Shown here: positions 7,343 through 58,091 of the stretch, in pieces
Numbering within the stretch: position 1 is the first letter of the stretch
Layout: each line of letters starts with the position of its first letter
Source: Parcubacteria group bacterium
GTDB lineage: Bacteria > Patescibacteriota > Minisyncoccia > JACPHC01
Assembly (NCBI GenBank): GCA_016188775.1
Contig: JACPHC010000007.1
Span: 28,097-92,096 of the forward strand
DNA length: 64,000 bases
Direction: 5' to 3'
Position numbers and translations under genes: made by a program
The notes under the pieces: model-generated
The model's input: only the letters and a program-made list of their open reading frames with translations
Told to the model about the DNA's origin: nothing
The model's database searches: none

Positions 7343-7354
7343 CCAAAAAATTTA

Positions 7355-7975
7355 TTAAATTTTTTTGAGAATCATTTTAATTACTAAAATCGAAACGATA
7401 AATCCGGCGGCGAGTTCAACAATGATTTTAGCGCCATTTTTAATGAAAGCGTTATTGATGTCTTTTTTTGTTTGGTTAAATGTTTGATAAATTTCCATAA
7501 CGCCCAAAACATTTTTCTGGCTATCAAGAATTGGGACGTAAGTTTCGGTAAATTCCGTATATTGTCGTTCGCTGGTTCTTTCAGCTTTAGAAAGCGATTT
7601 AAATTCAAACGCCGTTTCTCCGTCCAGGGCCTCTTTTACTTCATCGTTATCCGCGGCTTTCTCGCCGATAATTTCCGTAAGATTTGACCAGATTATTTTT
7701 GGTTCGCGGTCGTAAATTTTTATCCGAAAAAGCCTTGACGATTGGATTTTATCGAAGAAATTTTCAAAGACTCGCGCTTGCTCCTGCGTGGTTTTTTGCC
7801 AGACGGATTGGTCAATTAAAACGCTGGCTTGTTCTTGAATGAATTTTTCATTATCTTCTTTTAGATCGTCAATCGCTTCGTTTTTTATATTGTTGTAGCT
7901 TTTATAAAGCCAAAATCCGCCGCCTAAAATTGTTATAGCGGCTAAAATTAAAATAATTTTTAAATACTTGCTCAT
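7355..7975 (-). CDS. stand-alone membrane-anchored sensor-domain protein, paralogous to the periplasmic domain of the adjacent kinase
   Basis: Two transmembrane helices flank a domain that aligns with the kinase N-terminus (RFSIWSADKKILFSS vs RIKIYDREPKIIWSN; IYIPININGQIMGVVEIHDV vs TYVPILDSQKNVLGVMEIYQTF). It has no kinase core. Confidence 0.55.
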   Translation of the reverse strand: MSKYLKIILILAAITILGGGFWLYKSYNNIKNEAIDDLKEDNEKFIQEQASVLIDQSVWQKTTQEQARVFENFFDKIQSSRLFRIKIYDREPKIIWSNLTEIIGEKAADNDEVKEALDGETAFEFKSLSKAERTSERQYTEFTETYVPILDSQKNVLGVMEIYQTFNQTKKDINNAFIKNGAKIIVELAAGFIVSILVIKMILKKI

Positions 7976-8057
7976 ATTTATTTGAATTAATTATATGTAA
8001 ATTTTTATCGACCCCATAGTCATCTATAATAATAGCGAATATTTTTTATCGTATCAA

Positions 8058-8447
8058 TCAATCCTTCGCTTCGTTATAGTATTTAATAACAAGCTCGATC
8101 ATTTCGTCAATTCTAGTGTCGGCTTTGATTAAAAATTTTTTAATGCCCAGCGCTTTGACTTTTTCAATATCAGCGGCCTGGCTTAGATTGGAGAGCACCA
8201 GAACTGTCGCGTCTTTCCAGCCGTCTCGTTTTTTAATTTCCGAAAGAATTTGGAAACCCGAAGCGCGAGGCAACATCAAGTCAAGTATAATCACGGCCGG
8301 CGGTTCGTTTTTTAGGTTTTTGACGAAATCAATCGCTTCTTGTCCGTCCAAAACGGCTTTAAACGGCAAATTGTTTTTAGCGAATTTTAATTGATAGGCT
8401 TTTTGAATGACCGGATCGTCTTCAATTATGAAAATGTATTTATTCAT
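8058..8447 (-). CDS. single-domain response regulator (receiver only)
   Basis: Starts at MNKYIFIIEDD. The longer listed ORF at 8058..8672 runs into tRNA-Ser and is not real. The protein is highly similar to the one at 4688..5074. Confidence 0.8.
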   Translation of the reverse strand: MNKYIFIIEDDPVIQKAYQLKFAKNNLPFKAVLDGQEAIDFVKNLKNEPPAVIILDLMLPRASGFQILSEIKKRDGWKDATVLVLSNLSQAADIEKVKALGIKKFLIKADTRIDEMIELVIKYYNEAKD

Positions 8448-8537: not shown

Positions 8538-8632
8538 GTTTAAACCACTTCCGCCCAAGACGAACCAGCCTTGGGCTGACAGGCGCGTCTCCGTAATTTT
8601 AAAATTATCATTTATCATCGTTTTAATCAAAT

Positions 8633-8688
8633 AAAGCATCCGCGCCACCCTACGGGTGGCGCGGTATTGCAATAATGCTTTGTTATGA
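8633..8688 (+). repeat. GC-rich hairpin repeat (core copy A): AAAGCATCCGCGCC-loop-GGCGCGG..ATAATGCTTTGTTATGA
   Basis: Related copies at 19515, 42873 (minus) and 58080 (minus). GC-rich stem in an AT-rich genome. Confidence 0.6.
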
Positions 8689-12156: not shown

Positions 12157-13665
12157 TTACGGAACTTTAACGAATTGAGGAAGCGTAGCATTGTCTGAAA
12201 TTTTTAAATTTTCTCCGGTAAGCGGATCTAACATCCAAAGCTGGGGAAAAGATGGATCGAGTTTTTCTCCCTTCACGAAATCGCGAGGCGCTACGCGGTA
12301 ATAGAACTTACCGCCATAACTTGAGGCAATCCCCCAAATAAACTGTTCCTCAAGAGGAATTTTAAGACCGCCAATTTTATATTCTTGCAATGTTCTCTTT
12401 GAAGTATCAATTACTGTCAGCCAACTTTGTTGTTTTTCATGTTGTACGTCCTTAATTCTATGAATAGCAAGAAAGCGGCCGTCCTTTGACCAGACAAACT
12501 CGCCAAATAAGCCGGAATATATACCACCCTTAACTTCAAAAAGGAAATTGCCGTCATCATCAAAAAACAATGCTTTCGGGGTTATATAATTTTCGCTTGC
12601 CAAACAACAGCCGCCGTTTACCACAAGTTTTTTGCCATCCGGAGACCACGCTGAAGCAGAAAAGTATTCCGCGCCATTGGCGAGCGACATGGTAAGAATA
12701 GTTTTTACTTGAGTTCCATCCATGCTTGCAAGCCTCACCGCGGCGTTCGCCGTGTACGCAAATTGCTTGCCATCGGGCGAGAAAATTGGCGGGGGCATTA
12801 ATCCCTTCGGAATCCGAGAGAAATCTCCATACGAATCAAATTTCTTAATAGTGTTTTTAACAATATCGAGCTCCCAGAAGAGAATAGTTTGTGTACGCAT
12901 TTGAGAATCTTCGGTCAGCGTACGCAGCAGCGCCTTTTTACCGTCCGGGTACCACGCTTCAAAATCAGCCTTCTCAAAACCCTCGGGAGTTTTTAATTTA
13001 AATAGAGCGGTGCCGTCGGTTTTGACAATATAGAGAGCGGTGGCAATGTCGGTCACCTGCGCTCTCAAGACAGGATCGTATCCTAGCGGTTTTTCTTTCT
13101 CGATGTTTTCAAAAACGATATATTCTCCATCAGGAGAAATGCTATAAATACCCGTAGCTTTCGCTCTGCTGGTTATTTTTTCCTGGGGCCTGAAGGCAAG
13201 ATCTCCCCTCCAGATCTCCCCTTCATTAATGTAGAAAACGCTTGTCGCATTATCTAGAACAGCGAAATCCGCGCTTAGAATGGCCGGCTCCGGAACATTT
13301 AAACGTTTTTTCCGAACCTCATCAAAATAAATGAGGGATTGCCCAGCATTCACGTCTCTGATTCCCACGCCGTAGTAGAAAAGCGGGAATTTTGTTTCGG
13401 AAGGATATTCTTCGAGGAAGGTCAAAGTTGTTGCGGCGCCTGTTTCTCTCTTGAGTTCGCTTCGCTCAATCACTCCCTCGAAGGATCGCCCGGGGGCGCT
13501 AGATTGCCACGTCAACCTCGGCAGTATGAGAAACTTTATCATCATAAAAAGAAGAAATAAAATCGCGGCAATGACGAGCATTGCGACGAGTAATCCGATC
13601 AACCATCTCTTTTTACGACGTTTCCGGTCGTCCCCCTTTTGATTGGGAAACTCGTTTTTCTGCAT
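12157..13665 (-). CDS. membrane-anchored TolB-like beta-propeller (PD40 repeat) protein
   Basis: N-terminal transmembrane helix; repeated SPDGK/WSPDGKK propeller motifs. High GC. Confidence 0.55.
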   Translation of the reverse strand: MQKNEFPNQKGDDRKRRKKRWLIGLLVAMLVIAAILFLLFMMIKFLILPRLTWQSSAPGRSFEGVIERSELKRETGAATTLTFLEEYPSETKFPLFYYGVGIRDVNAGQSLIYFDEVRKKRLNVPEPAILSADFAVLDNATSVFYINEGEIWRGDLAFRPQEKITSRAKATGIYSISPDGEYIVFENIEKEKPLGYDPVLRAQVTDIATALYIVKTDGTALFKLKTPEGFEKADFEAWYPDGKKALLRTLTEDSQMRTQTILFWELDIVKNTIKKFDSYGDFSRIPKGLMPPPIFSPDGKQFAYTANAAVRLASMDGTQVKTILTMSLANGAEYFSASAWSPDGKKLVVNGGCCLASENYITPKALFFDDDGNFLFEVKGGIYSGLFGEFVWSKDGRFLAIHRIKDVQHEKQQSWLTVIDTSKRTLQEYKIGGLKIPLEEQFIWGIASSYGGKFYYRVAPRDFVKGEKLDPSFPQLWMLDPLTGENLKISDNATLPQFVKVP

Positions 13666-14208: not shown

Positions 14209-14315
14209 AAAAAAATAATACAGCAGAAAAATCTGCTGTATTATTTTGTTTTCGCGTTGAGCGTTCCGGTCTCACTAACGCCATCAGCGAGTCGGTTCTC
14301 GATAGCGAAAATCGT

Positions 14316-17770: not shown

Positions 17771-19516
17771 TTGGCAAAAGAAAAAACATTTTTTGATATT
17801 TTAGAGTCCAAAGGTCTTTTAAAAAGAACCGAGATTGATTTTATCGCCAAAGAAGCGAAAGATAAAAATATTGACCCGGAAGAACTGCTGATTGATAAAT
17901 ATCGTTTTTCAGCCATTGAAATCGCTAAAGCCAAAAGCGAGCTTACCGGCGCTCCCTTTAAAGTCATTCGAGCCGAAATTCCATTTGATGTTTTGCAATT
18001 GATTTCGGAAGAAGCGGCTCGGCGTTATCGTTTTATCCCTTTGGCGAAAACGGATAATATTCTTGAAGTCGGCATGATTAATCCCGAAGACGTCAAAGCC
18101 CAAGAAGCGCTCAAATTTATAATTTTAAGAAGCGGTTTGACCCCCAAAATTTATATTGTCAGCCGTTCCGATTTTGAAGATGTTTTGAAACAATATCGCG
18201 GTTTAAAAGGCGAGGTCAAAAAAGCCCTGAAAGAATACACCAAAGAAGCGGCCGAGGAAGAAATAATTTTGCCAAAATCTCCCTTGATTGAGAATTTAGA
18301 AAGAATGGCGGTTGAGGCGCCGATAACGAAAATAGTCTCGGTTATTTTAAGGCACGCGGTTGAAGGCAACGCTTCCGATGTTCACGTTGAGCCGACCGAT
18401 AAACAGCTTCGGGTGCGTTTTCGGGTGGACGGCATTCTTTATACCAGTCTTTTGCTGCCGGTGGAAATTCATTCGGCCGTTGTTTCCCGCATCAAAATTC
18501 TTTCTAATCTTCAGATAGACGAGACGCGCAAACCTCAAGACGGCCGTTTTCACACCGTTGTTGAAGATAAAGAGGTTGATTTTCGGGTTTCCACTTTTCC
18601 CACCAGTTTCGGCGAAAAAGTGGCGATGAGAATTTTGGATCCAACCGTCGGTCTTAAGAGTTTCAGCGACCTCGGCCTTCTCGGACGCAATGCCGAGGTT
18701 TTGTTTGAAGGATTGAAGCGGCCGTTCGGCTTGATTCTTTTGACCGGGCCGACCGGTTCGGGAAAATCCACCACCCTTTACGCGATTTTACAGTTTTTAA
18801 ACAAAGAGACGGTTAACATTGTCAGTCTTGAAGATCCGATTGAGTATTTTTTGGCCGGAGTCAATCAATCTCAAATTAAACCCGAGATCGGCTACGATTT
18901 CGCCACCGGGTTAAGGCATATTTTAAGAGGCGATCCGGATGTTATAATGGTGGGGGAAATCCGCGATCGGGAAACGGCCGCTTTGGCGGTTCACGCCGCC
19001 TTGACCGGCCATCTCGTTCTTTCCACTCTTCACACCAATGACGCTTTCGGCGTCATTCCCCGGCTGATTGATTTGGGCGTTGAGCCTTTTTTAATACCCT
19101 CGACATTAACCATTGCCATGGCTCAAAGATTGATTCGACGGCTTTGTCCGGAGTCAAGGCAGGAGACTGAGGTTGACCCGGAAAAATCCTTGATGATTGA
19201 AAAAACTTTAGCCGATTTACCCAAAGAAATTAAAGAGAGCGTTAAAATTAAAAAAGGCGCCAAAGTTTATCGGCCATTGGTTTCGCCAACGTGCCCGAAA
19301 GGCACGAGAGGCCGAATTGGCATTTACGAGGTTTTGCGAATGACGCCGGGGTTGGAAAAAATTATTTTGGAAGAACCGTCGGAAGCTCGGCTGAAAGAAG
19401 AAGCTAAAAAACAAGGGATGGTTTCAATGTACGCCGACGGCCTTTTAAAAGCGCTGGAGGGCGTTATCAGTTTTGAAGAACTGCAACAGACTGCCCAAAC
19501 GCCGGATGCCGAATAA
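17771..19516 (+). CDS. pilB: type IV pilus assembly ATPase PilB (GspE family)
   Basis: N-terminal T2SS-E domain; Walker A GPTGSGKST; tetracysteine motif. Confidence 0.9.
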   Translation: MAKEKTFFDILESKGLLKRTEIDFIAKEAKDKNIDPEELLIDKYRFSAIEIAKAKSELTGAPFKVIRAEIPFDVLQLISEEAARRYRFIPLAKTDNILEVGMINPEDVKAQEALKFIILRSGLTPKIYIVSRSDFEDVLKQYRGLKGEVKKALKEYTKEAAEEEIILPKSPLIENLERMAVEAPITKIVSVILRHAVEGNASDVHVEPTDKQLRVRFRVDGILYTSLLLPVEIHSAVVSRIKILSNLQIDETRKPQDGRFHTVVEDKEVDFRVSTFPTSFGEKVAMRILDPTVGLKSFSDLGLLGRNAEVLFEGLKRPFGLILLTGPTGSGKSTTLYAILQFLNKETVNIVSLEDPIEYFLAGVNQSQIKPEIGYDFATGLRHILRGDPDVIMVGEIRDRETAALAVHAALTGHLVLSTLHTNDAFGVIPRLIDLGVEPFLIPSTLTIAMAQRLIRRLCPESRQETEVDPEKSLMIEKTLADLPKEIKESVKIKKGAKVYRPLVSPTCPKGTRGRIGIYEVLRMTPGLEKIILEEPSEARLKEEAKKQGMVSMYADGLLKALEGVISFEELQQTAQTPDAE

Positions 19517-19695
19517 AGCATCCGCGCCGCAAGCGGCGCGGAATTGTGATAATGCTTTGTTATGAAAAGTTCTCGCTCGGCCCTGCCTGCCGGCAAGGCA
19601 GGCCGACCAACTCGCCTCGCTCGATTTAAACTCGTTTCGCTCGTTGCCTTCATCCCCGCGACAAGTCGCGTGGTATTCGGCGAATACATAATAAA
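19515..19695 (+). repeat. full-length (~180-nt) copy B of the GC-hairpin repeat family
   Basis: Its core matches 8633..8688. Its extension matches the reverse complement of 57917..58080 except for a 24-nt indel. The listed ORF MKSSRSA... is its translation. Confidence 0.6.
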
Positions 19696-19846
19696 CGCGA
19701 TAACGATCATGTTTCTTTTAAAAAAACAAAATAAAGGGTTTACCCCGTAAGACAACTTTGAATGCTGTCATTAAATTTTTTGATTAATGACAGTTTCAGG
19801 GCAAGATTATATAAATATGTTTGAATCTTTTAAAAAATCATCAATA

Positions 19847-29710: not shown

Positions 29711-31129
29711 TTGGATTTTTTTATGGAATTTGATCAATTCACAATTAAGCAATTACATGAAGGACTGGTTAAAAAAGAATTTTCTTCCACTGAATTAACC
29801 AGCGATTTTTTAAATCGCATTCGTGAAAAGGACAAGGCAATTCACGCGTTTTTAAGTTTGAATTCCGAAGAAGCGATTGGGCAGGCGGAGAAAGTTGATG
29901 AAATGATCTCTCAAGGAGAAAAAATTGACGTTTTATCCGGCATTCCTTGCGCGGTCAAAGACAATATTTTAGTCGAGAATTTGCCGGCCACAGCCGGATC
30001 AAAAATTTTGGAAAATTACATAGCGCCTTACGATGCCACGGCGATTAAAAAATTAAAAGAAAAAAAATCGATATTTTTGGGAAAAACGAATTTGGACGAA
30101 TTTGCCATGGGTTCTTCCACGGAAAATTCCGCTTTTGGGCCTACGAAAAATCCGGTTGATTTGAATCGGGTCCCGGGCGGATCTTCCGGCGGTTCAGCCG
30201 CGGCCGTTAAGGCCGGAATGTGCGCGTTTGCTTTGGGGTCGGATACCGGCGGTTCAATCCGCCAGCCGGCTTCGTTTTGCGGCGTAGTGGGGCTTAAGCC
30301 GACTTACGGCGCGGTTTCCCGTTACGGTCTTATGGCTATGGCTTCTTCTTTAGATCAAATTGGGCCGATTACCAAAACCGTTGAAGACGCGGAAATAGTT
30401 TTTGACGCCATGGCCGGTTATGATCTTCTAGATTCCACCAGCGTTAAATTTCCAATTCCAGATTTAAGGTTTAAGATTCAAGGACTGCGAATCGGCATTC
30501 CCAAAGAATATTTTCAAAAAGGATTAGATCCGAAAGTGGACGAGGCCATTAAAAAAGCCATTAAACAATTTGAAGATTTAGGAGCCAGTATCGAAGAAAT
30601 AAGTTTGCCGCATACGTCCGACGCTCTCGCGTCTTATTATTTAATTATGCCCTCCGAAGTTTCAGCTAATCTTGCCAGGTACGACGGCATTAAATACGGC
30701 CTTTCAAAAGAAGGCGATGATTTGATATCGGTTTATTTAAATACCAGAAAAGAAGGTCTTGGCCAAGAAGTCAGAAGGAGAGTGATGTTGGGCGCTTACG
30801 CTTTATCGGCCGGCTATTACGACGCTTTTTATCTTAAAGCCCAAAAAGTTCGCGCGCTGATCAAACAAGATTTTGAAAAAGCTTTTTCCAAGGTTGATCT
30901 TTTACTGACGCCGACCAGTCCTCAAACCGCTTTTAAATTCGGCGAAAAAACAGCTGATCCGCTGGCAATGTATCTGGCCGATATTTACACCGTGCCGGTT
31001 AATTTGGCGGGTCTGCCGGCCATTTCAATTCCAGTTGAGCCGGTTGGCGGTTTACCAATCGGCCTTCAAATCATCGGCCGCTGGTTCGAAGAAAAATTAA
31101 TTTTAAAAGCGGCTCAAGAGTTAAAATAA
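29711..31129 (+). CDS. gatA: Glu-tRNA(Gln)/Asp-tRNA(Asn) amidotransferase subunit A
   Basis: Amidase-signature GGSSGGSAAAV with a Ser-cisSer-Lys triad. Confidence 0.9.
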   Translation: MDFFMEFDQFTIKQLHEGLVKKEFSSTELTSDFLNRIREKDKAIHAFLSLNSEEAIGQAEKVDEMISQGEKIDVLSGIPCAVKDNILVENLPATAGSKILENYIAPYDATAIKKLKEKKSIFLGKTNLDEFAMGSSTENSAFGPTKNPVDLNRVPGGSSGGSAAAVKAGMCAFALGSDTGGSIRQPASFCGVVGLKPTYGAVSRYGLMAMASSLDQIGPITKTVEDAEIVFDAMAGYDLLDSTSVKFPIPDLRFKIQGLRIGIPKEYFQKGLDPKVDEAIKKAIKQFEDLGASIEEISLPHTSDALASYYLIMPSEVSANLARYDGIKYGLSKEGDDLISVYLNTRKEGLGQEVRRRVMLGAYALSAGYYDAFYLKAQKVRALIKQDFEKAFSKVDLLLTPTSPQTAFKFGEKTADPLAMYLADIYTVPVNLAGLPAISIPVEPVGGLPIGLQIIGRWFEEKLILKAAQELK

Positions 31130-31130
31130 T

Positions 31131-31694
31131 ATGTCTCCGTTTCAAGCGCAAATGAGCAACGTTGCCTTAGACCTTTTTTTGCAAGTTTGGGACGATTTTT
31201 TGTTTTATTTATCGTCTTCGTTGGGAGATCAAATTTTATTTGCTTTTAAACTTATCGCCCTGATTATTTCTTTATTGCTTGGCGCGGCCATAGCTTATTT
31301 ATTAATTCAGATAAATCCGGTTGGCAAAAAAATTTCCGACCTGAAAGAAATTTTGCGAAGATCGTCTTTGGAAAAAGGCCGGGTTATCAAGGGCTGGAAA
31401 AAGATAATGGAAAGAATGAGTCAGCCGAACGAAGCGGATTATAAATTGGCGATCATAGAAGCGGACAAACTTTTTGACAATTTGCTTTTGGAAATCGGAT
31501 ACAAAGGAGAGACAATGGCGGAGAAACTGAAAAAAATAAACAAGGCCCAGCTTGCTTCGCTGGACGATCTTTGGCGGGCGCATAAGATAAGAAACGAGCT
31601 TGTCCATAATCCGGATTTTAAATTGGCGCGGCTTGAGGCCGAGGAGGCGATTAATATCTACAAAAAAGCCTTGGAGGAATTTGAAATTTTGTAA
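31131..31694 (+). CDS. hypothetical membrane protein (no gatB follows gatA)
   Basis: 187 aa with one transmembrane helix and no recognisable domain. Confidence 0.4.
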   Translation: MSPFQAQMSNVALDLFLQVWDDFLFYLSSSLGDQILFAFKLIALIISLLLGAAIAYLLIQINPVGKKISDLKEILRRSSLEKGRVIKGWKKIMERMSQPNEADYKLAIIEADKLFDNLLLEIGYKGETMAEKLKKINKAQLASLDDLWRAHKIRNELVHNPDFKLARLEAEEAINIYKKALEEFEIL

Positions 31695-31723
31695 TAATTT
31701 AATACTTGTATAATATATTTATT

Positions 31724-31755
31724 TAGCACTTACTTGCTATCGCTTATAAGTGCTA
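31724..31755. repeat. 32-bp palindromic element TAGCACTTAC-N12-ATAAGTGCTA (copy 2)
   Basis: Same family as 2760..2791 and 36524..36555. It lies about 115 bp upstream of the tRNA promoter. Confidence 0.6.
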
Positions 31756-31838
31756 TATCTGTTTCTATCTCGTAAAATTATCAATGATTCGATCCATTGG
31801 TAAAAAATAAAATTGGACTAACTGAACTAACAAAAAAT

Positions 31839-31867
31839 TTGCAAATTATCAAATTTTAAATTATAAT
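31839..31867 (+). promoter_or_regulatory. sigma70-like promoter for the tRNA at 31873 (TTGCAA-17-TATAAT)
   Basis: The -35 is at 31839..31844 and the -10 at 31862..31867, 5 nt upstream of the tRNA 5' end. Confidence 0.4.
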
Positions 31868-31872
31868 TTTTT

Positions 31873-31943
31873 CGCGGGATAGAGAAGCAGTATCTCGGGA
31901 GGCTCATAACCTCCAGACCCCGGTGCAAGTCCGGGTCCCGCAA
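31873..31943 (+). tRNA. tRNA-Met (anticodon CAT), initiator-like with a C1·A72 mismatch
   Basis: Cloverleaf CGCGGGA-TA-GAGA-AGCAGTA-TCTC-G-GGAGG-CTCATAA-CCTCC-AGAC-CCCGG-TGCAAGT-CCGGG-TCCCGCA-A. The T-loop has G where U55 is expected. Followed by ACA, not CCA. Confidence 0.55.
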
Positions 31944-32005
31944 CATTACGATCCTTTCAGCTTGAATTTTTCAGTGACCACGGTGTCATCCCTTCGGGAG
32001 ATCGC

Positions 32006-32025
32006 CCGCAGGGCGACAAGTCCGG
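32006..32025 (+). repeat. direct duplicate of the tRNA-Met 3' end (T-loop 3' half, T-stem, acceptor 3' strand, ACA), 60 nt downstream of the intact gene
   Basis: caagtccgggtcccgcaaca occurs at 31926..31945 and at 32006..32025. The intervening 60 nt contain two small GC hairpins. Confidence 0.6.
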
Positions 32026-32101
32026 GTCCCGCAACAAATTTTTATCCAGTAAAATTTACAAGGTCGACACAGTGAAATTAATTTTAATTAAATTATAAAA
32101 T

Positions 32102-32569
32102 ATGTTTTTACTTTTACTTATTGGCCGAATTATTTTAGGCGGTTATTTTATAATGAACGGCGTTACGCATTTGTCCGGATTTAAAATGATCAAGCAATAC
32201 GCCGAGTATAAAAAACTCCCGATGCCGGGATTTGGCGTTGTTATTTCCGGCTTGGCTTGGCTTATCGGCGGACTGGCTATTTTGCTTGGCGTTTATATTC
32301 AGTTGGGCATTTGGCTTTTGATTATTTTTCTTCTTGGAGCCGCTTTTAAATTCCACGATTTCTGGAACGAGGCTGATTTTAACGTAAAAATGGCTCAACA
32401 GGCGCATTTTGCCAAAAATATCGCTTTGGCCGCCAGTCTTTTGGTTATTCTGGGACTATTGAAAATCAGCGGAGATAATTTGGCTATTCGCGGTTCAGGT
32501 TTAGTTTGTAAAGTTCGGCCGGGCCTTTGCCAGCCTGTTCCGACCGGTTGGAGAAAGTTTATTTACTAA
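32102..32569 (+). CDS. DoxX-family membrane protein
   Basis: Four transmembrane helices; DoxX-like GGYFIMNGVTHL. Confidence 0.6.
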   Translation: MFLLLLIGRIILGGYFIMNGVTHLSGFKMIKQYAEYKKLPMPGFGVVISGLAWLIGGLAILLGVYIQLGIWLLIIFLLGAAFKFHDFWNEADFNVKMAQQAHFAKNIALAASLLVILGLLKISGDNLAIRGSGLVCKVRPGLCQPVPTGWRKFIY

Positions 32570-33895
32570 CTTTTTGAATTTTTCTCCTCGGATTCTGGAA
32601 TTCAAAAACATATCCAAACTCGCTGAAGCGGGCGAAAAAAGAACAATTTCGTCCGTTTTGGCTTTATTTTGAGCTATAAAAACGGCTTTTTCCAAAGTGG
32701 CTGTTTTTTCTATATTAATATTTTTTTTGGTTCTTGAAGCCGCTTGGGCGATTAAGGAACCAGTTTGGCCAATAGTAATTAAAAATTTGACTTTTTGAGC
32801 TATTTTTTGGCCTAATTTTTTAAAATTGAGATTTTTACTGGCTCCGCCGGCAATTAATATAATCGGCTGTTGAAAAGAATTTAGGGCCGCGATAGTTGAA
32901 ACGGGTGTTGTTGAGGCCGAGTCGTTAAAAAATTTAACGCCGTTTATTTCCCTGACAAATTCAATCCGATGTTCAACGCCGGGGAAATTTTTTATAGTTT
33001 TTTTGATTATAGATTTTGGAATTTTTAGAATTTTCGCGGCTTTAATAACGGCTAAAATATTTTCAAGACTGTGATCGCCGCGAAGAGTTATCGGGATGTT
33101 TAAGCTTTTTAAAATTTTTCTCTCCTTTTTTAAATTAAAAAATATTCTTCGCGCTTTAATTTTTTTTGCGACTTCTAAGCTTTTAAAATTACTTTCGTTG
33201 ATAACGGCGAAATCTTTTTTTGTCTGATTTTGAAAAATTATTTTTTTGGCTTGAATATAATGTCGCAAATTCGGATACCGATCCAAATGGTCTTCGTAGA
33301 TATTGGTCAGGACCGCGATAAAAGGCTTGAAGTTTTTATTGTTTTTTAAAAGTTCGAGCTGGAAACTGGAAAGCTCCAGCAGGACATAAGTTCGCGAATC
33401 AATTTTTTTCAAATCAGAAAGAAGGGATTTTCCCAGATTGCCGCCCAAGATGAATTTTTTATTCGCTGTTTTTAGAAGGCGAGCGATGAGCGAGACAGTG
33501 GTAGTTTTGCCTTTGGCGCCGGTAACTGCGATGATTTTGTTTGTTTTCGGGCTAGTTAGATTTATAAAAATTCCAATTTCGCTCTGGATTTTGGTTCCAT
33601 GTTTTTGAGCGATTTTTAAATAAGGCGAGTTTAACGAAATAGCCGGACTGGCCACGACGATTTCATTTTCTCTGAAAATATTTTTCGGATGTTTGCCCAG
33701 ATAATATTTAATCGGAAGATTTTTTAATTTTTTCAAACTAGGCTCCAATTCCTTTTTTGTCCGCAAATCGGTTATTGTAATTTTAGCTCTTTGTTTTGCC
33801 AAAAATTTGGCGACTGCCATTCCGCCATTCTGAAGCCCCAACCCCATAATCAGTATTTTTTTGTTTTTAAATTCGTTTCGCATAAGTTTTATCAT
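32501..33895 (-). CDS. murD: UDP-N-acetylmuramoylalanine--D-glutamate ligase MurD
   Basis: Mur ligase ATP-binding motif GAKGKTTT; N-terminal Rossmann fold ILIMGLGLQNGG. Confidence 0.85.
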   Translation of the reverse strand: MIKLMRNEFKNKKILIMGLGLQNGGMAVAKFLAKQRAKITITDLRTKKELEPSLKKLKNLPIKYYLGKHPKNIFRENEIVVASPAISLNSPYLKIAQKHGTKIQSEIGIFINLTSPKTNKIIAVTGAKGKTTTVSLIARLLKTANKKFILGGNLGKSLLSDLKKIDSRTYVLLELSSFQLELLKNNKNFKPFIAVLTNIYEDHLDRYPNLRHYIQAKKIIFQNQTKKDFAVINESNFKSLEVAKKIKARRIFFNLKKERKILKSLNIPITLRGDHSLENILAVIKAAKILKIPKSIIKKTIKNFPGVEHRIEFVREINGVKFFNDSASTTPVSTIAALNSFQQPIILIAGGASKNLNFKKLGQKIAQKVKFLITIGQTGSLIAQAASRTKKNINIEKTATLEKAVFIAQNKAKTDEIVLFSPASASLDMFLNSRIRGEKFKKLVNKLSPTGRNRLAKARPNFTN

Positions 33896-34104
33896 AGCAT
33901 TGAAAATTTGATTTTTGAATGCTAAATTATTATTGACCTTTTGCGAAATAATTTTTCGTAATGAAATTTGAAGATTTTGAGCGAAAATTGTGAAGAGTGA
34001 GGAAGCCGTATTTGGTTAAAAATACGGATACGAGCTCTGAACAATTTGCAGCCAAAATATTAAAATTGAAATAGAAAAGATTATTTCGCAAGAGGTCTAT
34101 ATTC

Positions 34105-34176
34105 GCCGGCGTAGCTCAGTGGCAGAGCGAGGCTTTCATAAGGCCGAGGTCAGAGGTTCGAATCCTCTCGCCGGCA
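34105..34176 (+). tRNA. tRNA-Met or tRNA-Ile2 (anticodon CAT), elongator type
   Basis: GCCGGCG-TA-GCTC-AGTGGCA-GAGC-G-AGGCT-TTCATAA-GGCCG-AGGT-CAGAGG? / T-arm GAGG-TTCGAAT-CCTC with acceptor CGCCGGC-A. Position 1-72 is paired. The anticodon stem has an A27·G43 mismatch. Confidence 0.7.
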
Positions 34177-34214
34177 CAAATTGCGTTTTTTGTTTATTTA
34201 ATTAAAATAATAAT

Positions 34215-35060
34215 ATGGAAGAAAACACAGAACATAAATACCATCATATAATGCCTCATCCGCCAAAGGTGATGATTTATTTCGTCAGTTTGTTTTTAAT
34301 AGTTATTTCGTTCAACTATTTTTTAGATTCTATTAAGATTTTAAAATCAATTAGAGCCGAGAAAAAAACTATCTCCGTCTCGGCCGAAGGCAAGCTTAGC
34401 GCGGTTCCGGATATCGCCTCTTTGACCTTATCGGTTATTATCGAAGATAAAGATCCAAAAAAAGTTGAATCGGAAAATTCTAAAAAAGCCAATGGAATTA
34501 TTGATTTTGTAAAATCGCTTGGAGTCAAAAGCGAAGACATAAAAACTTCCAATTATTCTTTAACGCCAAAGTATTATTATCCCTACGATTACCCGAGAAT
34601 TCCTTGTCCGCTTGAATCGGAAGTGATTTCGCCCAAGCCTTTTCTCTGTCCGCCGAAATTTTCTTTGATTATCGGCTATGAGTTGAATCAATCCATTAGT
34701 TTAAAAATCAGAGATTTTAAAATAATCGGCAGTGTTATTTCCGGTTCAATTGAAGCTGGCGCGAATCAAATTAGCGGCGTCAGTTTTTCCATTGAAGATC
34801 CGGATAAATTAAAAAATGAAGCCAAGAAATTAGCCATTGAATCGGCTAAAGAAAAAGCTAAAGAATTGGCTAAGTCCGCTGGCGTCAGATTGGGCCGAGT
34901 GGTTTCTTTTTCCGAAGGAGAAATTTTTTCCCCCCAACCCAGATTCTTAGAAGCCGGAACTGTCGGCGCGTTTAAATCCGAAAGCGCGGTTTTGCCCCAG
35001 ATTGAGCCGGGCTCGGAAGAAGTCAGAGCAACAATGAGCGTTATTTTTGAAATAAAATAA
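34215..35060 (+). CDS. SIMPL-domain (DUF541) membrane-anchored protein
   Basis: N-terminal transmembrane helix; C-terminal region resembles the 26-kDa periplasmic immunogenic protein family (KLKNEAKKLAIESAKEKAKELAKSAGVRLGRVVSFSEG). Confidence 0.55.
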   Translation: MEENTEHKYHHIMPHPPKVMIYFVSLFLIVISFNYFLDSIKILKSIRAEKKTISVSAEGKLSAVPDIASLTLSVIIEDKDPKKVESENSKKANGIIDFVKSLGVKSEDIKTSNYSLTPKYYYPYDYPRIPCPLESEVISPKPFLCPPKFSLIIGYELNQSISLKIRDFKIIGSVISGSIEAGANQISGVSFSIEDPDKLKNEAKKLAIESAKEKAKELAKSAGVRLGRVVSFSEGEIFSPQPRFLEAGTVGAFKSESAVLPQIEPGSEEVRATMSVIFEIK

Positions 35061-35087
35061 ATTTTACCCCTTCTATGTTTTTTAAAA

Positions 35088-35125
35088 AAACGACTTCGTG
35101 AAAACGAAGTCGTTTTGACTTTTTA
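35088..35125 (+). terminator. rho-independent terminator (acgacttcgt/acgaagtcgt)
   Basis: 10-bp stem with a GAAA loop and a T-tract. Confidence 0.5.
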
Positions 35126-35192
35126 GATCAATTAATGTATTTTTAGATTAGATTTTTTGAAAATTAATATTTAACAGAAAAAAGGAGAAAAA

Positions 35193-36377
35193 ATGAAAAA
35201 ATTTCTGTTTATTCTTGTTTTAGCTGTTTTGATTTTTCCAATGGTTTCTTACGCTTATTATGATTTAGGCGTAAATTATTCGTTAAAAGAGAATTATCTT
35301 CAAGGAGAAAAATTAGGGGCCAGTTCAGCGTTGTCTGATTATCTGGTAATGTGGGAAAAAGGCCAGCCGGTTATTTATATTAGTTATTCAATTTCGGAAA
35401 ACTCCGAAGAGAGTAAAAATAATCTTTCGTTAATTAAAAATCGATTTGATTTTGGCGCTTCGATGACGCTTGCTGAAAACTTGAAATTCAAATTCGCCGG
35501 CTCCAATCTTTTAGAAGAAAACACGGATAAATTTTCCGCTTACGGAATGTATTTAATCTGGCGGCCGAACCAATTTTTGAAAAAGATGGAATTGGGAGCG
35601 GAAATGGATACGGAATTAAAAACGTTTTATTTCGCGGCCAGCCGTTTTAATTTTTTTCACAAAGATGACTTCGATTATAATTGGCTGCTTGGATTTTCCA
35701 GTGAAAATACTTCTGATTCTGTTTCACAAAGATTTGGTTTCGGAAGCAATATGGGTCTTGGGGGTTATTCCGCGGTTATTGCTTTGACTCAAAATTTAGA
35801 CGATGGCGGACAGACGAGACTTTATGGCCTTGCGAAAAATAACAGTTTCATCGCGGTTTTTCGCGATAAGCCTGAAAGCGATTACTGGCTAGGCATCCTG
35901 ACTTTAAAGGGGCAAGCGTTAAATCTTAGAGCTAATCAAGAAATTTTTGACGCGTTCTTTGCCGGTTCTTTGTCTGGCACAAGAGTCGTTGCTAATCGGA
36001 ATTTTGATAAAATAGGCCTTTCACCGGCCTATCAAATTCAGGATTATGGAAAATTAGTTTTGAGCGTCAGCGTGTCCAAAATTGATATTGACGGCGCCAA
36101 TCTTTTAAATGACGCTCAAGAAATTGATTGGACTTTGGGCGATGCTTGGAAGATAAAATCTTTTTATCTTTCCGGCGGCCGAGTGGGGGAGACTAATCTT
36201 TTTTATAATTCCTTAAAAATGGGACTGGCCGAAGATTATCAAACAAGTTTGAGTCTCGGTTTTGGCGGCAAGGTTTCAATGTTTGACGTTCCGACGCGCT
36301 TCAGTATTACCAATTTTTACAGCTTAAATCAGTCTAATTGGGCTGGAGTTTCAACCCAGCTGATTTTCTCTTTTTAG
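35193..36377 (+). CDS. secreted hypothetical protein, possibly beta-rich / barrel-like
   Basis: Signal peptide MKKFLFILVLAVLIFPMVSYA; Gly/Ser/aromatic-rich alternating pattern; C-terminal ...LIFSF. Confidence 0.4.
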   Translation: MKKFLFILVLAVLIFPMVSYAYYDLGVNYSLKENYLQGEKLGASSALSDYLVMWEKGQPVIYISYSISENSEESKNNLSLIKNRFDFGASMTLAENLKFKFAGSNLLEENTDKFSAYGMYLIWRPNQFLKKMELGAEMDTELKTFYFAASRFNFFHKDDFDYNWLLGFSSENTSDSVSQRFGFGSNMGLGGYSAVIALTQNLDDGGQTRLYGLAKNNSFIAVFRDKPESDYWLGILTLKGQALNLRANQEIFDAFFAGSLSGTRVVANRNFDKIGLSPAYQIQDYGKLVLSVSVSKIDIDGANLLNDAQEIDWTLGDAWKIKSFYLSGGRVGETNLFYNSLKMGLAEDYQTSLSLGFGGKVSMFDVPTRFSITNFYSLNQSNWAGVSTQLIFSF

Positions 36378-36523
36378 AAGCGTAAATTTAAAAGCAGACA
36401 GAAATGCCTGCTTTTGTTTTTTAATAAAGTCTATATTCTAAGATAACTTGGGCGCTCTCAAAAAAACCAGTAAAAATTTCAAACAACCCTCATTTATATT
36501 ATTTATTTTTTTAGTATTTTATT

Positions 36524-36555
36524 TAGCACTTATAAGCGATAGCAAATAAGTGCTA
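36524..36555. repeat. 32-bp palindromic element TAGCACTTAT-N12-ATAAGTGCTA (copy 3, loop inverted relative to copies 1 and 2)
   Basis: About 145 bp upstream of tRNA-Asp. Confidence 0.6.
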
Positions 36556-36701
36556 AAATTAAAAGTAAATTTAAATAAGTTAAATAAGTTAAGTAAGTTA
36601 ATTAGTTTATCAAATCTAAATATAAAGTTTGCTTCGTATGAGATTTGCGTGTTCAAATAAAATTTGGTAGATTATTATGCCTTAATAATTTTTTAAATTT
36701 T

Positions 36702-36777
36702 GCAGCCGTGGTGTAGTCTGGTCTAACATGCCTCCCTGTCACGGAGGAGATCGCCGGTTCAAATCCGGTCGGCTGCG
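36702..36777 (+). tRNA. tRNA-Asp (anticodon GTC)
   Basis: GCAGCCG-TG-GTGT-AGTCTGGTCTA-ACAT-G-CCTCC-CTGTCAC-GGAGG-AGATC-GCCGG-TTCAAAT-CCGGT-CGGCTGC-G. Confidence 0.85.
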
Positions 36778-36784
36778 CAAAATT

Positions 36785-36947
36785 TAACGCGAACCGTAAA
36801 ACGATATCGCCGGTTTGGCCCGGGAAAGGGGTCGGGAAAACGAGAGTTTTCCCGTGGCGGAAGCAGCGAACGAAGTGAGCGTTGAAACCGCAAGGTTTCA
36901 ACGCGCAGCGAAGCGAGCAGTGAAAATCCGGTCGGCTGCGCAAAATT
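36785..36947 (+). other. 139-nt insertion after tRNA-Asp followed by a 24-nt direct duplicate of the tRNA 3' end (aaatccggtcggctgcgcaaaatt)
   Basis: The 24-mer occurs at 36761..36784 and at 36924..36947. The insert contains an 11-bp perfect hairpin (gcgttgaaacc/ggtttcaacgc) flanked by GCAGCGAA(C)GA(A)G direct repeats. A small terminator follows at 36948..36975. Confidence 0.55.
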
Positions 36948-37164
36948 AAAAATGCCCGAAAGGGTATTTTTTTGATGGATTTTAAGTTTGCTTTTTATTA
37001 TTTTTTTGCTAAAATAAAGATATGCCCAGTAGAAGAATTTCGATAGATTTCTTTTTTTATCATCAGATTATTACTTTTTATCTGGGTATATAATTTATTA
37101 TTAACAATTTCGACTTTCTATCCCAAGAAATCTTAATGATAGAATCGAAATTTCTCTACTGGGT

Positions 37165-37560
37165 ATGTCAGGTCGACGTTATTTCTGGTTTTTTAGCGTT
37201 ATTCTTATTTTATCCGGGATTAGTTTAGCGGGAATTTTTTATATAACCAATCCCAGGGAAGCGGGACTGATTTTGAAATTATTGATTTACGCGAATATTT
37301 TTTTCTTATTTTTCTCTTTTTTTTCGGTTCTATTTCTTAAATTAAGAAGATTTTTTAAACCCGACGGATTGATTTTTGAAGAGGTCAGCGTTTCTTTAAG
37401 GCAAGCCGGCCTTTTAGCTTTATTTTTGGCCATTCTCGCGTTTTTTTCTTCCCGAAAATTATTAAAATTTTATTTCATAATTCCTTTAGGTTCTATTTTT
37501 TTAATTCCGGAAATATATTTTTACTATAAAATAGTTAAAAGGAAAATATTTGGCGATTAA
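37165..37560 (+). CDS. small polytopic membrane protein (hypothetical)
   Basis: 131 aa with three or four predicted transmembrane helices. Confidence 0.35.
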   Translation: MSGRRYFWFFSVILILSGISLAGIFYITNPREAGLILKLLIYANIFFLFFSFFSVLFLKLRRFFKPDGLIFEEVSVSLRQAGLLALFLAILAFFSSRKLLKFYFIIPLGSIFLIPEIYFYYKIVKRKIFGD

Positions 37561-38557
37561 AATGGAAAAAGTTAATCTCAAAAATTTAAAGTTAAAAGCC
37601 GAAGAAGAGATTAAAAAAATATCATCGCTCAAAGAGCTCGATGATTTATATCGTTTTTATCTCGGCCGGAAAGGCGAATTAAATAAAATTTTTGACTCGC
37701 TGAAAATTTTGCCGTTGATTCAAAGAAAAAAAATAGCGGCTGACGCCAACGATTTTAAAAATAATTTAAATAAACTTTTTAAGGAGTATAAAGATCTGAT
37801 AAAAAAGGAAGTGGAAAAAACCGTTTTTAAAATGGAGCGGATCGATGTTTCCAGGCCCGGCCGGGAAGTTAAGATTGGCCATTGGCATCCGATTATCAAA
37901 ATACAGCGCGAGATTGAAGGCATATTTGAAAGTTTGGGCTTTGAAGTTGTTTTCGGTCCGGAAATTGAAACCGAATACTATAATTTTACGGCTCTAAACG
38001 TCGGGCCGGATCATCCGGCGCGCGATATGCAATCAAGTTTTTGGATTGACGAGAAAAAGGGATTGCTTTTAAGGACTCAAACTTCGCCGCTCCAGATTCG
38101 CTATATGGAAAAAAATTTTCCTCCCTTTCGAATGATCGCGCCCGGCCGGGTTTTTCGCTATGAAGCCACGGACGCCACTCACGATATTCAGTTTTATCAA
38201 GCGGAAGGCCTGATGATTGATAAAGATATTTCCGTGGCGAATTTTAAATCCGTGATTCATGATTTTTTCCGCCGGCTTTTTCATCCGAAAATAGAAATTC
38301 GGCTGGTTCCCAGTTATTTTCCTTTTGTCGAACCCGGTTTTGAGATTTATATTCGAGATAAAAACGGCAAATGGCTGGAGGTGATGGGCGCGGGAATGGT
38401 TCACTCGGATGTTTTAAAAAGAGTCGGCATCAATTCTGGGGAGTGGCAAGGTTTCGCTTTTGGCTTGGGGCCGGACAGGCTGGCGATGATTAAATACGGC
38501 ATCAATGATATTCGGCTATTTCATTCAAGCGATTTGAGATTTCTTCATCAATTCTAA
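37550..38557 (+). CDS. pheS: phenylalanine--tRNA ligase alpha subunit
   Basis: Class II aaRS motifs FRMIAPGRVFR and GLGPDRLAMI. Confidence 0.9.
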   Translation: MAIKMEKVNLKNLKLKAEEEIKKISSLKELDDLYRFYLGRKGELNKIFDSLKILPLIQRKKIAADANDFKNNLNKLFKEYKDLIKKEVEKTVFKMERIDVSRPGREVKIGHWHPIIKIQREIEGIFESLGFEVVFGPEIETEYYNFTALNVGPDHPARDMQSSFWIDEKKGLLLRTQTSPLQIRYMEKNFPPFRMIAPGRVFRYEATDATHDIQFYQAEGLMIDKDISVANFKSVIHDFFRRLFHPKIEIRLVPSYFPFVEPGFEIYIRDKNGKWLEVMGAGMVHSDVLKRVGINSGEWQGFAFGLGPDRLAMIKYGINDIRLFHSSDLRFLHQF

Positions 38558-42872: not shown

Positions 42873-42919
42873 AGCATTATCACAATGCCGCGTCATCCTG
42901 CGGGTGACGCGGATGCTTT
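42873..42919 (-). repeat. GC-hairpin repeat, core copy C, minus orientation
   Basis: agcattatcacaatgccgcgtcatcctgcgggtgacgcggatgcttt. It overlaps the stop codon of the minus-strand peptidase gene. Confidence 0.6.
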
Positions 42920-44483
42920 ATTTAAACATTTCTATCAATTTGACAGGGTCAGTAAGGGCCGTATTGATTCTGACTGCCAGATGTAAATGAGGAGCGTTGG
43001 AATTGCCGGTTGAGCCAACTTTACCGACGATGTCTCCTTTTTTGACAAAATCGCCGATTTTTACCGAAAATTCGGATTGATGGAGATAAAAAGAAAATAT
43101 TCCGGCGCCGTGATCAATTACCGTGATATTGCCTTCAAGAAAATAATCATAGCCGAGATGGACTATGTGTCCGGCGGCAATGGCTTTAATCGGATAACCC
43201 GCCGGAGCCCGAAAGTCAGTTCCGTGATGAAGTCGAGATTTTTTATTTTTTGGATTGACTCTTTGCTGGCCGAATGGGCTTGTAATTTGACCGATATCCG
43301 CTTGTTTTTCAACCGGCCAATCAAATCCGTCGAGCCAATAATTTTCAGGGCTTTGATTTTGATAAGCTAATATTAATTCTCTATGCTCTTTTTCAATTCT
43401 CGCGTTTTCTTCGTCTGTCCAGTTCCTTCGATTCCATTGCTGACTGACGCTTTTTTTGAATTTACCCTTTTTGACGTTGATGATTTTTTCTTCAATGGGC
43501 CCGTCATTGCCTTTCTGATAAATCGCGAGCGGATAATCGCCCGGCGCCAAATAAAGATCAATGCCAACAAGGGCGTATGTTTTACTGTCTTTTTTAAAAA
43601 AGACAAGATTATATTTTTTCTCTTGAACCGTCAGAAATCCCTCCAGATCGTTCGGATCAACCTCGCTTTTTAAAGGAATTATTACAGGATCGCCTTGGAA
43701 AGCCGAACCGGAGTGGATATTGTTTGAATTCGCGGAAACATCAATGACTATCCTCTGTTTTTCTTTTAGCCAAAGTATATTTTCATTTTCGGAACATTTC
43801 GGATTAATAAATTCGCAAAGTTTTTTCGCGTCTTCTTTAAATAAGCGAATACAGCCGTGCGAGGCCGGATAGCCGGGAAGGTCGCCGCTATGAAGCCAGT
43901 AAGCGATGCCTTGCTCGTCAATGAAAAACATTGATGCGTAGGGCATCGGAATCGCGTTTTCCTCCGCGTCTTTGTAGACAGAGGAAAAATGGTCGCGATG
44001 AAAAGCCAGTGTTTCAAATAAACCAGTCGGAGTTTCACAGTTTTTTATTTTTTTAGTTTTTTCGTCTTGGCAACTTAATCGTCCTGAACTGATGGGAGCG
44101 GAAAAAATTAGTTTTCCTTTTTCGTAAGCTCCCAGCCATTGCTCTTCCAAATTGACTAAAATGGATTTTTCCAATTTTTTTCTTTCTTCAATCCTTTCCT
44201 TAATAAAAGGCGGCATTGGCTCGTAATTTTTAGCCTCCTCTATGTTTTTGGGCGCTTTAATTCTGTCCCCGGAGATTAAATGATTTTTGTCCATCCTGTT
44301 GAAGCGCGCCACCCAAGGCCATTCATTTTTAAATAACTTATAAAATGAATCCCCGGGCCCAACTCGATAATAGCTCCAAGCAATATTATTTTGCGAAGGA
44401 TAAATTGGCAATTCTCGAGCTGAAACTGCGTTTCCATTTAGCCACAAACCGATTAAAAATCCAACGGCGATTTTAAAAAACAT
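42918..44483 (-). CDS. bifunctional cell-wall enzyme: L,D-transpeptidase (YkuD) domain plus a C-terminal M23 metallopeptidase
   Basis: YkuD catalytic SHGCIRL; M23 HxxxD / HLH motifs (HHGTDF...APHLHLAV); signal peptide. Confidence 0.8.
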   Translation of the reverse strand: MFFKIAVGFLIGLWLNGNAVSARELPIYPSQNNIAWSYYRVGPGDSFYKLFKNEWPWVARFNRMDKNHLISGDRIKAPKNIEEAKNYEPMPPFIKERIEERKKLEKSILVNLEEQWLGAYEKGKLIFSAPISSGRLSCQDEKTKKIKNCETPTGLFETLAFHRDHFSSVYKDAEENAIPMPYASMFFIDEQGIAYWLHSGDLPGYPASHGCIRLFKEDAKKLCEFINPKCSENENILWLKEKQRIVIDVSANSNNIHSGSAFQGDPVIIPLKSEVDPNDLEGFLTVQEKKYNLVFFKKDSKTYALVGIDLYLAPGDYPLAIYQKGNDGPIEEKIINVKKGKFKKSVSQQWNRRNWTDEENARIEKEHRELILAYQNQSPENYWLDGFDWPVEKQADIGQITSPFGQQRVNPKNKKSRLHHGTDFRAPAGYPIKAIAAGHIVHLGYDYFLEGNITVIDHGAGIFSFYLHQSEFSVKIGDFVKKGDIVGKVGSTGNSNAPHLHLAVRINTALTDPVKLIEMFK

Positions 44484-57864: not shown

Positions 57865-57967
57865 GTTTTATTCTTCTCGATACATCATTAAAGTCCTGGA
57901 AAAACAGGGCTTTATTTTTATTATGTATCCGCCGAATACCCCATCTCCCATAAGGAGACGGGATTGA
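57857..57967 (+). pseudogene. hicA: truncated hicA toxin gene (only about 22 native codons) interrupted by the GC-hairpin repeat element
   Basis: MPKFYSSRYIIKVLEKQGFIFI matches the HicA N-terminus (..KVLEK.GF..). The frame then runs into repeat sequence (MYPPNTPSPIRRRD*). Its start overlaps the hicB stop. Confidence 0.5.
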
Positions 57968-58080: not shown

Positions 58081-58091
58081 ATTTCTCAAAC

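Follow-up and report, generated by a model that had tools for sequence, protein, structure and literature searches.

The DNA analyzed here (the window) is a 64,000-nt stretch from a member of the Parcubacteria (CPR/Patescibacteria), with an overall GC content of 39%. It carries the genes for LigA, GatC, GatA, and a 187-aa protein, a tRNA-fMet gene, the genes for DoxX and MurD (the latter on the minus strand), a tRNA-Met gene (34105–34176), the genes for a SIMPL protein and a 394-aa protein, a tRNA-Asp gene, and the genes for a 131-aa protein, PheS, and PheT. The tRNA genes were called with ARAGORN and Rfam, which were concordant for the tRNA-Met(CAT) at 31873–31943 and for tRNA-Asp(GTC).

For comparison, we used a set of fetched loci, labeled L001 etc. 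and 160 in total, in which the useful relatives were obtained through protein look-ups. Scans of GTDB genomes and JGI metagenomes returned distant relatives only, the best identities being 53% for PheS and 38% for MurD. The closest relative was found in the Logan metagenome SRR22387819, with identities of 78% for PheS, 68% for the 394-aa protein, and 61% for the 187-aa protein; its contig L100 covers the fMet side of the region and its contig L098 the Asp side.

Two tRNA Genes Followed by Copies of Their Own 3′ Ends

Each of the two tRNA genes is intact and is followed by a second copy of its 3′ end. At the tRNA-fMet locus, the features are the following:

31839–31867 (+), promoter-like site TTGCAA-17-TATAAT upstream of tRNA-fMet, the −10 hexamer ending 5 nt before base 1 of the tRNA
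31873–31943 (+), intact, initiator-like tRNA-Met(CAT) with the T-loop TGCAAGT (ARAGORN; Rfam tRNA score 53.7 bits)
31916–31925 (+), segment A, GACCCCGGTG, from the end of the variable loop through the 5′ half of the T-stem to T54-G55 (delimited by reading the sequence)
31926–31945 (+), repeat B, first copy, CAAGTCCGGGTCCCGCAACA, running from C56 of the T-loop through the 3′ half of the T-stem, the 3′ acceptor strand, and the discriminator to 2 nt beyond it
31946–31975 (+), spacer s, 30 nt, 33% GC, with no counterpart in L100
31976–31985 (+), segment A′, GACCACGGTG, the 5′ part of the displaced fragment, matching segment A (31916–31925) at 9 of 10 positions
31986–32016 (+), block I, 31 nt, GC-rich, lying in the T-loop of the displaced fragment at 55|56
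32017–32036 (+), repeat B, second copy, the identical 20-nt CAAGTCCGGGTCCCGCAACA, followed by AATTTTT...

The tRNA at 31873–31943 is called initiator-like because of its C1×A72 mismatch. The two copies of its 3′ end are 71 nt apart, and block I between them can form two small hairpins, TCCC-TTCG-GGGA and GCCC-GCA-GGGC. A preliminary description of this DNA had reported an exact 20-nt repeat at 32006–32025, 60 nt after the tRNA. The repeat is indeed exact, but it lies 11 nt further on, at 32017–32036, after a gap of 71 nt, and positions 32006–32025 in fact read CCGCAGGGCGACAAGTCCGG. The fMet locus is identical, base for base over 376 nt, in two independent Logan assemblies from other sequencing runs, and the same-species Logan contigs show no population variant at this locus.

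The tRNA-Asp locus contains the following features:

36702–36777 (+), intact tRNA-Asp(GTC) (ARAGORN; Rfam score 62.8 bits)
36747–36759 (+), segment A, GAGATCGCCGGTT, found by repeat search (family D5)
36761–36784 (+), repeat B, first copy, AAATCCGGTCGGCTGCGCAAAATT, 24 nt, from A57 of the T-loop to 7 nt past the discriminator
36785–36802 (+), spacer s, 18 nt
36803–36815 (+), segment A′, GATATCGCCGGTT, matching segment A (36747–36759) at 12 of 13 positions
36816–36923 (+), block I, 108 nt, GC-rich, at T-loop position 55–57 of the displaced fragment
36924–36947 (+), repeat B, second copy, exact AAATCCGGTCGGCTGCGCAAAATT, whose flank AATTAAAAAT resembles the AATTAAAGAT found 3′ of tRNA-Asp in L098
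36953–36973 (+), terminator-like hairpin TGCCC-GAAA-GGGTA followed by T7, identified by eye and not listed by the consensus scan

Here, the arrangement was as previously described: the tRNA occupies 36702–36777, its 24-nt end recurs at 36924–36947, the gap between the two copies measures 139 nt, and a repeat search confirms that they are exact. Block I contains the GNRA-capped hairpins CGGGAAAAC-GAGA-GTTTTCCCG and GCGTTGAAACC-GCAA-GGTTTCAACGC. On reading the sequence, we saw no terminator signal between tRNA-Asp and the second copy; because the sole terminator-like signal stands after this copy, the insert is probably cotranscribed with the tRNA. The Asp trailer is known from a single assembly, the Logan contigs ending at 36748 and resuming at 36961.

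When up to three mismatches were allowed, the fMet 20-nt repeat and the Asp repeat each had exactly two occurrences in the 64 kb, and in neither case did any of 100 shuffled sequences contain two matches. A chance origin of both duplications is thus unlikely, as had been supposed at the outset.

The two loci share a common order, namely the tRNA (ending in A-B), the spacer s (30 nt in fMet, 18 nt in Asp), A′, block I (31 or 108 nt), B, and the native flank. Matches as good as the A′ segments were rare in shuffled inserts (44 of 20,000 for the 9/10 match of fMet and 2 of 20,000 for the 12/13 match of Asp), and the displaced fragment therefore begins in the variable loop and reaches the 3′ end of the tRNA, its T-loop being interrupted by 31 nt in fMet and by 108 nt in Asp. 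That the downstream copies also retain the 5′ half of the T-stem (A′) is new relative to the preliminary description. On its left side, the duplication starts at 55|56 of the T-loop in fMet and at 56|57 in Asp, and again at 56|57 in both extra copies of a further locus, L021, presented below; the left boundary lies within the T-loop in all five displaced copies. The right edge is found 1, 2, or 7 nt beyond the discriminator.

Empty Sites in Related Genomes

In the closest relative, the tRNA-fMet gene (L100, 1803–1874) has no duplicate and is directly followed by AATTTTGAAAA... and then DoxX. In the window, the corresponding AATTTTTATCC... and DoxX come after the second fMet copy, which is therefore the native, displaced 3′ end. 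On the other side, the alignment pairs the L100 promoter region with the first fMet copy of the window; because the −35 and −10 hexamers are also recognizable in L100, the 5′ side of this copy is native as well. Relative to L100, the window thus has a 91-nt insertion, that is, 71 nt plus one repeat. On the Asp side, L098 starts with a single tRNA-Asp 3′ end, followed by GAGAATTAAAGAT, which resembles the window flank after the second copy, AAAATTAAAAAT. No second tRNA-Asp 3′ copy was found in the next 280 nt of L098, where downstream synteny differs.

More distant relatives, L099 (60% identity in PheS) and two contig groups (L101–L120), have a compact fMet-Met-Asp cluster located between the gene for a 177/183-aa protein and PheS, and no duplicate of a tRNA 3′ end was found in these clusters, the sites of both tRNAs being empty. 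Since these relatives do not have the duplicates, the arrangement is lineage-specific. An empty site could also arise when the DNA between two direct repeats is deleted, but parsimony across several relatives favors an insertion. The comparison of relatives suggested in the preliminary description therefore did reveal empty sites (L100 for fMet, and no duplicates in L098, L099, and L101–L120); an identical arrangement with a conserved insert in all relatives, which would have pointed away from an insertion, was not what we found, and the insertion reading survives.

As a separate observation, the initiator-like tRNA of this clade (window, 31873–31943; L100, 1803–1874; L099, 9599–9670; L101, 3785–3856) has the T-loop TGCAAGT, TGCAAAT, or TGCAATT, with a G at position 55 in place of the near-universal U (pseudouridine), and a short D-loop without the G18-G19 pair. 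These two features together suggest an unusual tRNA elbow.

Composition and Folding of the Inserts

The A′+I blocks have a GC content of 59–68%, compared with 62% for the tRNAs and 19–29% for the nearby intergenic DNA, and their hairpins are capped by UUCG, GAGA, GCAA, and GAAA loops. Such a composition is not that of random decayed DNA; high GC content combined with UUCG/GNRA loops points to a recent arrival or to selection on structure rather than to junk. The Asp trailer folds far better than its shuffled versions (z about −4.7 to −4.9), whereas the fold of the fMet trailer is not unusual by the same comparison (z −1.2 to −2.3). The minimum free energy (MFE) fold of the Asp transcript joins the 5′ acceptor strand to the distal copy, while GCGCAGC in block I takes the proximal 3′ end as its partner.

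This fold (z −4.9), together with the location of GC-rich, structured inserts between tRNA and terminator, would agree with a functional cis-acting RNA that tunes the maturation of the tRNA, either by offering the 5′ acceptor strand a second, competing 3′ half or by serving in processing or termination. However, neither the closest relative nor any of the more distant ones, with a single exception, has such a trailer, no sequence or structure is conserved between the units, complementarity between insert and repeat B is at shuffle level, and the fMet transcript has an ordinary fold (z −1.75). We therefore consider a functional trailer very improbable; the deliberate competing 3′ half envisaged in the preliminary description receives no comparative support, the closest relative being devoid of the structure.

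Two more specific candidates were rejected. The duplex energies between insert and B were no better than those of shuffled sequences (229–430 of 1000), so that a designed "anti-acceptor" pairing between insert and repeat is not supported. Likewise, block I and spacer s do not derive from the remainder of the tRNA, on either strand, as local alignments were no better than with shuffled sequences.

Searches for an Enzyme, a Donor, and Known Families

Neither the inserts and their surroundings, nor the rest of the 64-kb window, nor the fetched loci yielded an integrase or other recombinase gene when searched by tblastn with XerD and lambda Int (best E-value 0.48 in the window and nothing at E ≤ 1e−3 in the fetched loci). 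No ORF was found within the window inserts. Viral contigs yielded no attP, the only matches being phage tRNA arrays or random high-GC matches: the fMet 20-mer matched nothing but a phage tRNA array, the Asp 19-mer and the L021 18-mer had zero matches, and a 16-mer gave 29 random matches in high-GC phages. An integrase with an attP matching the repeat, for which the preliminary description proposed to look, thus came to light neither in the window and the fetched loci nor in viral contigs.

BLAST searches with both trailers found no homologs of the inserts in the window and in 130 (L001–L130) to 160 fetched loci, and Rfam, at E ≤ 5 over positions 31000–38000, reported only the three tRNAs and subthreshold noise, with no intron family. 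That the inserts have neither homologs nor an Rfam family fits independent acquisitions rather than one conserved RNA.

Several kinds of known elements were examined and discarded. A MITE- or RPE-like palindromic family is not supported, because no further copies occur in the window or in L001–L130 and no terminal inverted repeats were visible by eye; as these were not seen, a casposon- or transposon-style target-site duplication is also unlikely. A homing-endonuclease cassette was discarded because a nuclease ORF is absent from the window inserts and occurs only in an unrelated locus (L016, see below). Finally, a tRNA intron (group I or bulge-helix-bulge) is not supported, given the continuity of the functional tRNAs and the lack of an Rfam intron match. 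The group I introns described in tRNAs of Patescibacteria, inserted in the anticodon loop at 35/36 (PMC13011429), do resemble our inserts in phylum, type of target gene (tRNA-Asp), and structured, GC-rich nature. Unlike these introns, the inserts leave the functional tRNAs of the window uninterrupted and lie in the T-loop of the displaced fragment, and their blocks, of 31 and 108 nt, could not accommodate a group I core and do not match Rfam Intron_gpI.

Other Disturbed tRNA Loci in CPR

In a single distant relative, L021 (49% identity in PheS), the last 18 nt of tRNA-Asp recur twice downstream of the gene (copies at 6743, 6928, and 7088, the last with one mismatch). The inserts between the copies measure 167 and 142 nt; BLAST showed no relationship between the two, or between either of them and the inserts of the window, and no A′ was recognizable in this locus. 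A terminator-like hairpin with a T-run stands after copy 1 and another after copy 2, whereas the DNA after copy 3 is merely AT-rich. The same point of tRNA-Asp was thus struck independently in two lineages, and serially in one of them. Just 3′ of the third copy, at 7215–8158, lie two paralogous small ORFs of 121 and 177 aa, neither of which matches Pfam and which are missing from the compact GatA-tRNA-PheS arrangement of the other relatives; they may represent island cargo.

Other fetched loci show tRNA genes disturbed in different ways. In L016 (DAOSMC010000012.1, Paceibacterota), positions 12700–13554 contain tandem units made of a tRNA-Phe-like copy, cut after T-loop position 56, and an 88-aa ORF. 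Downstream of these units come a tRNA-Phe(GAA) that is intact and a displaced Phe-like fragment whose "anticodon loop" has 6 nt. The 88-aa ORF encodes a GIY-YIG nuclease (Pfam E-value 2.7e−16), of which no homolog was found in the window.

In L095 (743–957; Logan SRR22387819_891228), the homolog of the tRNA-Met of the window (34105–34176) has its D-loop split by a clean 32-nt GC hairpin and its anticodon loop split by a helix of 13 bp (CCCGCCCACTTTT/AAAAGTGGGCGGG), inside which lies another complete tRNA-Met(CAT), distinct from the first (826–898); pairing by hand revealed no bulge-helix-bulge motif in this nested tRNA. In L071 (7034–7306; OZ244961.1, Paceibacterota), the first 24 nt of a tRNA-Thr(TGT) are repeated upstream of the gene and its last 45 nt downstream. 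Both partial copies are joined, between D arm and anticodon stem, to a hairpin of 24 nt (GTGAGAAG-N7-CTTCGAACC), and compensatory changes distinguish one hairpin from the other.

Origin of the Insertions

The reading that we prefer, and to which we give roughly an even chance, is that both loci are lineage-specific, site-specific insertions at the T-loop to 3′-end part of a tRNA gene, that is, very small att-type scars or nonautonomous remnants. The incoming DNA would enter at T-loop position 55|56 (fMet) or 56|57 (Asp) and supply a copy of the tRNA 3′ end, so that the gene is rebuilt from the host 5′ part and the supplied 3′ part. The original 3′ end of the host would thereby be moved downstream, by 91 nt in fMet and 163 nt in Asp, to its present position before the native flank (and, in Asp, the terminator), and the scar would now be passively transcribed as a tRNA trailer. 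It agrees with the exactness of the repeats, their boundary in the T-loop, the existence of empty sites, the native nature of the outer flanks, and the accretion in tandem. We infer the action of a tyrosine integrase or a similar recombinase, an original element of larger size, whose attachment site the GC-rich A′-I block once adjoined, and a trailer with no present-day function. In our judgment, a free double-stranded circle of 91 or 163 bp is mechanically unlikely as an integrative element; for this reason, we favor remnants of larger elements, or another route of insertion, over autonomous minicircles.

Several points do not sit easily with a plain scar. Besides the missing integrase in the window and fetched loci, the missing attP in viral contigs, and the tRNA-like, structured composition described above, the four CPR inserts all measure 71–167 nt, whereas the random decay of islands of kilobase size should give a wider spread. 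In a simple attR, A′ and B should be contiguous, whereas block I separates them at both loci. Moreover, the perfect Asp identity up to 7 nt past the discriminator is as easily explained by in situ copying as by an attP.

Known crossover positions of tyrosine integrases in tRNA genes are the anticodon loop, the T-loop, and the 3′ acceptor end. An attB in the T-loop is an established integrase target, as for mycobacteriophage Ms6 in tRNA-Ala (PMC1762012), and a regenerated tRNA with a displaced 3′ fragment is an accepted marker of island ends, the replacement 3′ end being supplied by the element (PMC4383910, PMC9897764). Compared with the attL/attR repeats of such systems (Ms6, PMC1762012; Islander islands, PMC4383910; tRNA gene fragments, PMC9897764), our loci have in common an intact tRNA with a direct displaced 3′ fragment, a duplication that extends from the T-loop to or just past the 3′ end (18–24 nt), empty sites, and, in L021, tandem sites. 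They differ in their size, 71–167 nt instead of kilobases, in the lack of an integrase, cargo, and arm sites, in a displaced T-loop that is split by a GC-rich hairpin block, and in the tRNA-like GC content of the inserts. The attL/attR scars proposed in the preliminary description are hence supported in part. In favor are the intact tRNA with its direct displaced 3′ repeat, the left edge at a known crossover position in the T-loop, the empty sites in relatives, the unconserved inserts, and the three-copy series of L021; against are the A′-I-B layout, the composition of the inserts, and the failure to find an integrase in the window or the fetched loci or a corresponding attP in viral contigs.

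The geometry of the loci could also result from cleavage by a T-loop-specific endonuclease of the homing type, followed by copy-and-join repair, for which no recombinase or circle is required. After a break at 55–57, the 3′ end would be copied from a sister copy and filler DNA captured, leaving [A′]-I-[B] 3′ of the restored gene. Filler repair has precisely the observed geometry, in which A′ ends and B starts exactly at the T-loop break point, and an arbitrary right edge (1, 2, or 7 nt past the discriminator) is expected if copying stops at random. In L016, the GIY-YIG ORF comes after position 56 of the tRNA-Phe-like copies, which have both the intact tRNA-Phe gene and the displaced 3′ piece as neighbors, and GIY-YIG enzymes that cut in tRNA gene clusters are known, such as T4 SegB, a free-standing homing endonuclease (PMC2330249). 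SegB-type nucleases resemble the presumed agent in targeting tRNA gene DNA, a point also illustrated by the L016 ORF at T-loop 56|57, and in that repair copies the flanks. However, SegB homing leaves no duplicated 3′ ends with filler, the window loci have no nuclease gene, and the window has no homolog of the L016 ORF. In addition, the source of the filler is not identifiable, the spacer s is unaccounted for, and the same complex, multipart outcome would be needed twice. On balance, break repair seems unlikely to us.

We give a smaller chance still to natively small noncoding cassettes (B′-s-A′-I, 91–185 bp) that are still mobilized in trans by an enzyme encoded elsewhere, and that would form a class resembling CIMEs or integron cassettes, acting on tRNA T-loops with the GC-rich hairpins as recognition structure. 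Such cassettes would explain the narrow size range of all four CPR inserts (71–167 nt), the tRNA-like composition with stable tetraloops, the serial accretion of unrelated units in L021, and the presence of the A′ T-stem half in both window units. Yet neither insert is duplicated in the 64 kb or in the fetched loci, the units are alike only in what the target dictates, with A′ not recognizable in L021, and no candidate enzyme was found; circles of 91–163 bp would also probably be too stiff as recombination substrates. CIMEs are cis-mobilizable, att-flanked remnants without recombination genes of their own, about a kilobase in scale and located beside a cognate ICE. Our loci share with them noncoding DNA between two att-like repeats at a tRNA 3′ end and tandem accretion, and differ from them in their much smaller size and in that no ICE or integrase was seen.

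A broader version of the cassette hypothesis, of similarly low probability in our view, would be an undescribed class in CPR/Patescibacteria of ~70–190 bp, GC-rich, structured, noncoding cassettes that insert at T-loop 55–57, are self-healing through a replacement tRNA 3′ end, and stack in tandem. The replacement end would sometimes be provided with its own terminator, the cassettes may be driven by T-loop nucleases like the GIY-YIG ORF located at the same position in L016, and the nested or hairpin-interrupted tRNA copies of L095 and L071 may reflect the same process of tRNA-gene invasion and replacement.

Returning to site-specific insertion, the two loci represent a known phenomenon in a small and unusual form. 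They belong to a wider pattern, seen in CPR genomes, of disturbed tRNA loci that could merit a systematic survey. If they are only scars, they mark tRNA T-loops as recombination hot spots in the ultra-small genomes of CPR, where the tRNA is always rebuilt, and they explain orphan tRNA fragments that can mislead annotation and break assemblies. If the small, structured inserts instead form a separate mobile class, no smaller tRNA-targeting insertion units would be known, and they would tie T-loop-specific nucleases or recombinases to the odd tRNA architecture of Patescibacteria (introns, nested, and split-looking copies).

Additional Repeats and Hairpins in the Window

Other structured sequences were observed in the window. 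GC-rich, hairpin-forming stretches directly adjoin two further tRNA genes, both on the minus strand, as a 60-nt leader 5′ of tRNA-Ser(TGA) (8538–8597) and as a ~75-nt trailer between tRNA-Ser(GCT) and its terminator (about 14240–14315); neither duplicates tRNA sequence. A separate repeat family, AATAAAGCATCCGCG-hairpin-CGCGGNATTGYRATAATGCTTTGTTATGA, occurs at 8629–8688, 19512–19700, 42873–42923 (−), and 57917–58084 (−). Its members at 19512–19700 and 57917–58084 (inverted) have ~190 nt in common, in which motifs of the GAGCGAAGCGAG type occur, as does what may be a short ORF starting with ATG (MKSSRSA...).

Finally, a 32-nt palindromic motif, TAGCAYTTA-N14-TAAGTGCTA with the core GCGATAGC, is present at 2760–2791 (−), 31724–31755, and 36524–36555, in both orientations, and adjoins tRNA genes, being located 27 nt 3′ of tRNA-Arg, 118 nt 5′ of tRNA-fMet, and 147 nt 5′ of tRNA-Asp. 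Logan contigs break at this motif, and the closest relative has an analogous hairpin near tRNAs, with the core CGCTATAGCG or CGCTATAACG (L098, about 70–115; L100, about 1640–1680).
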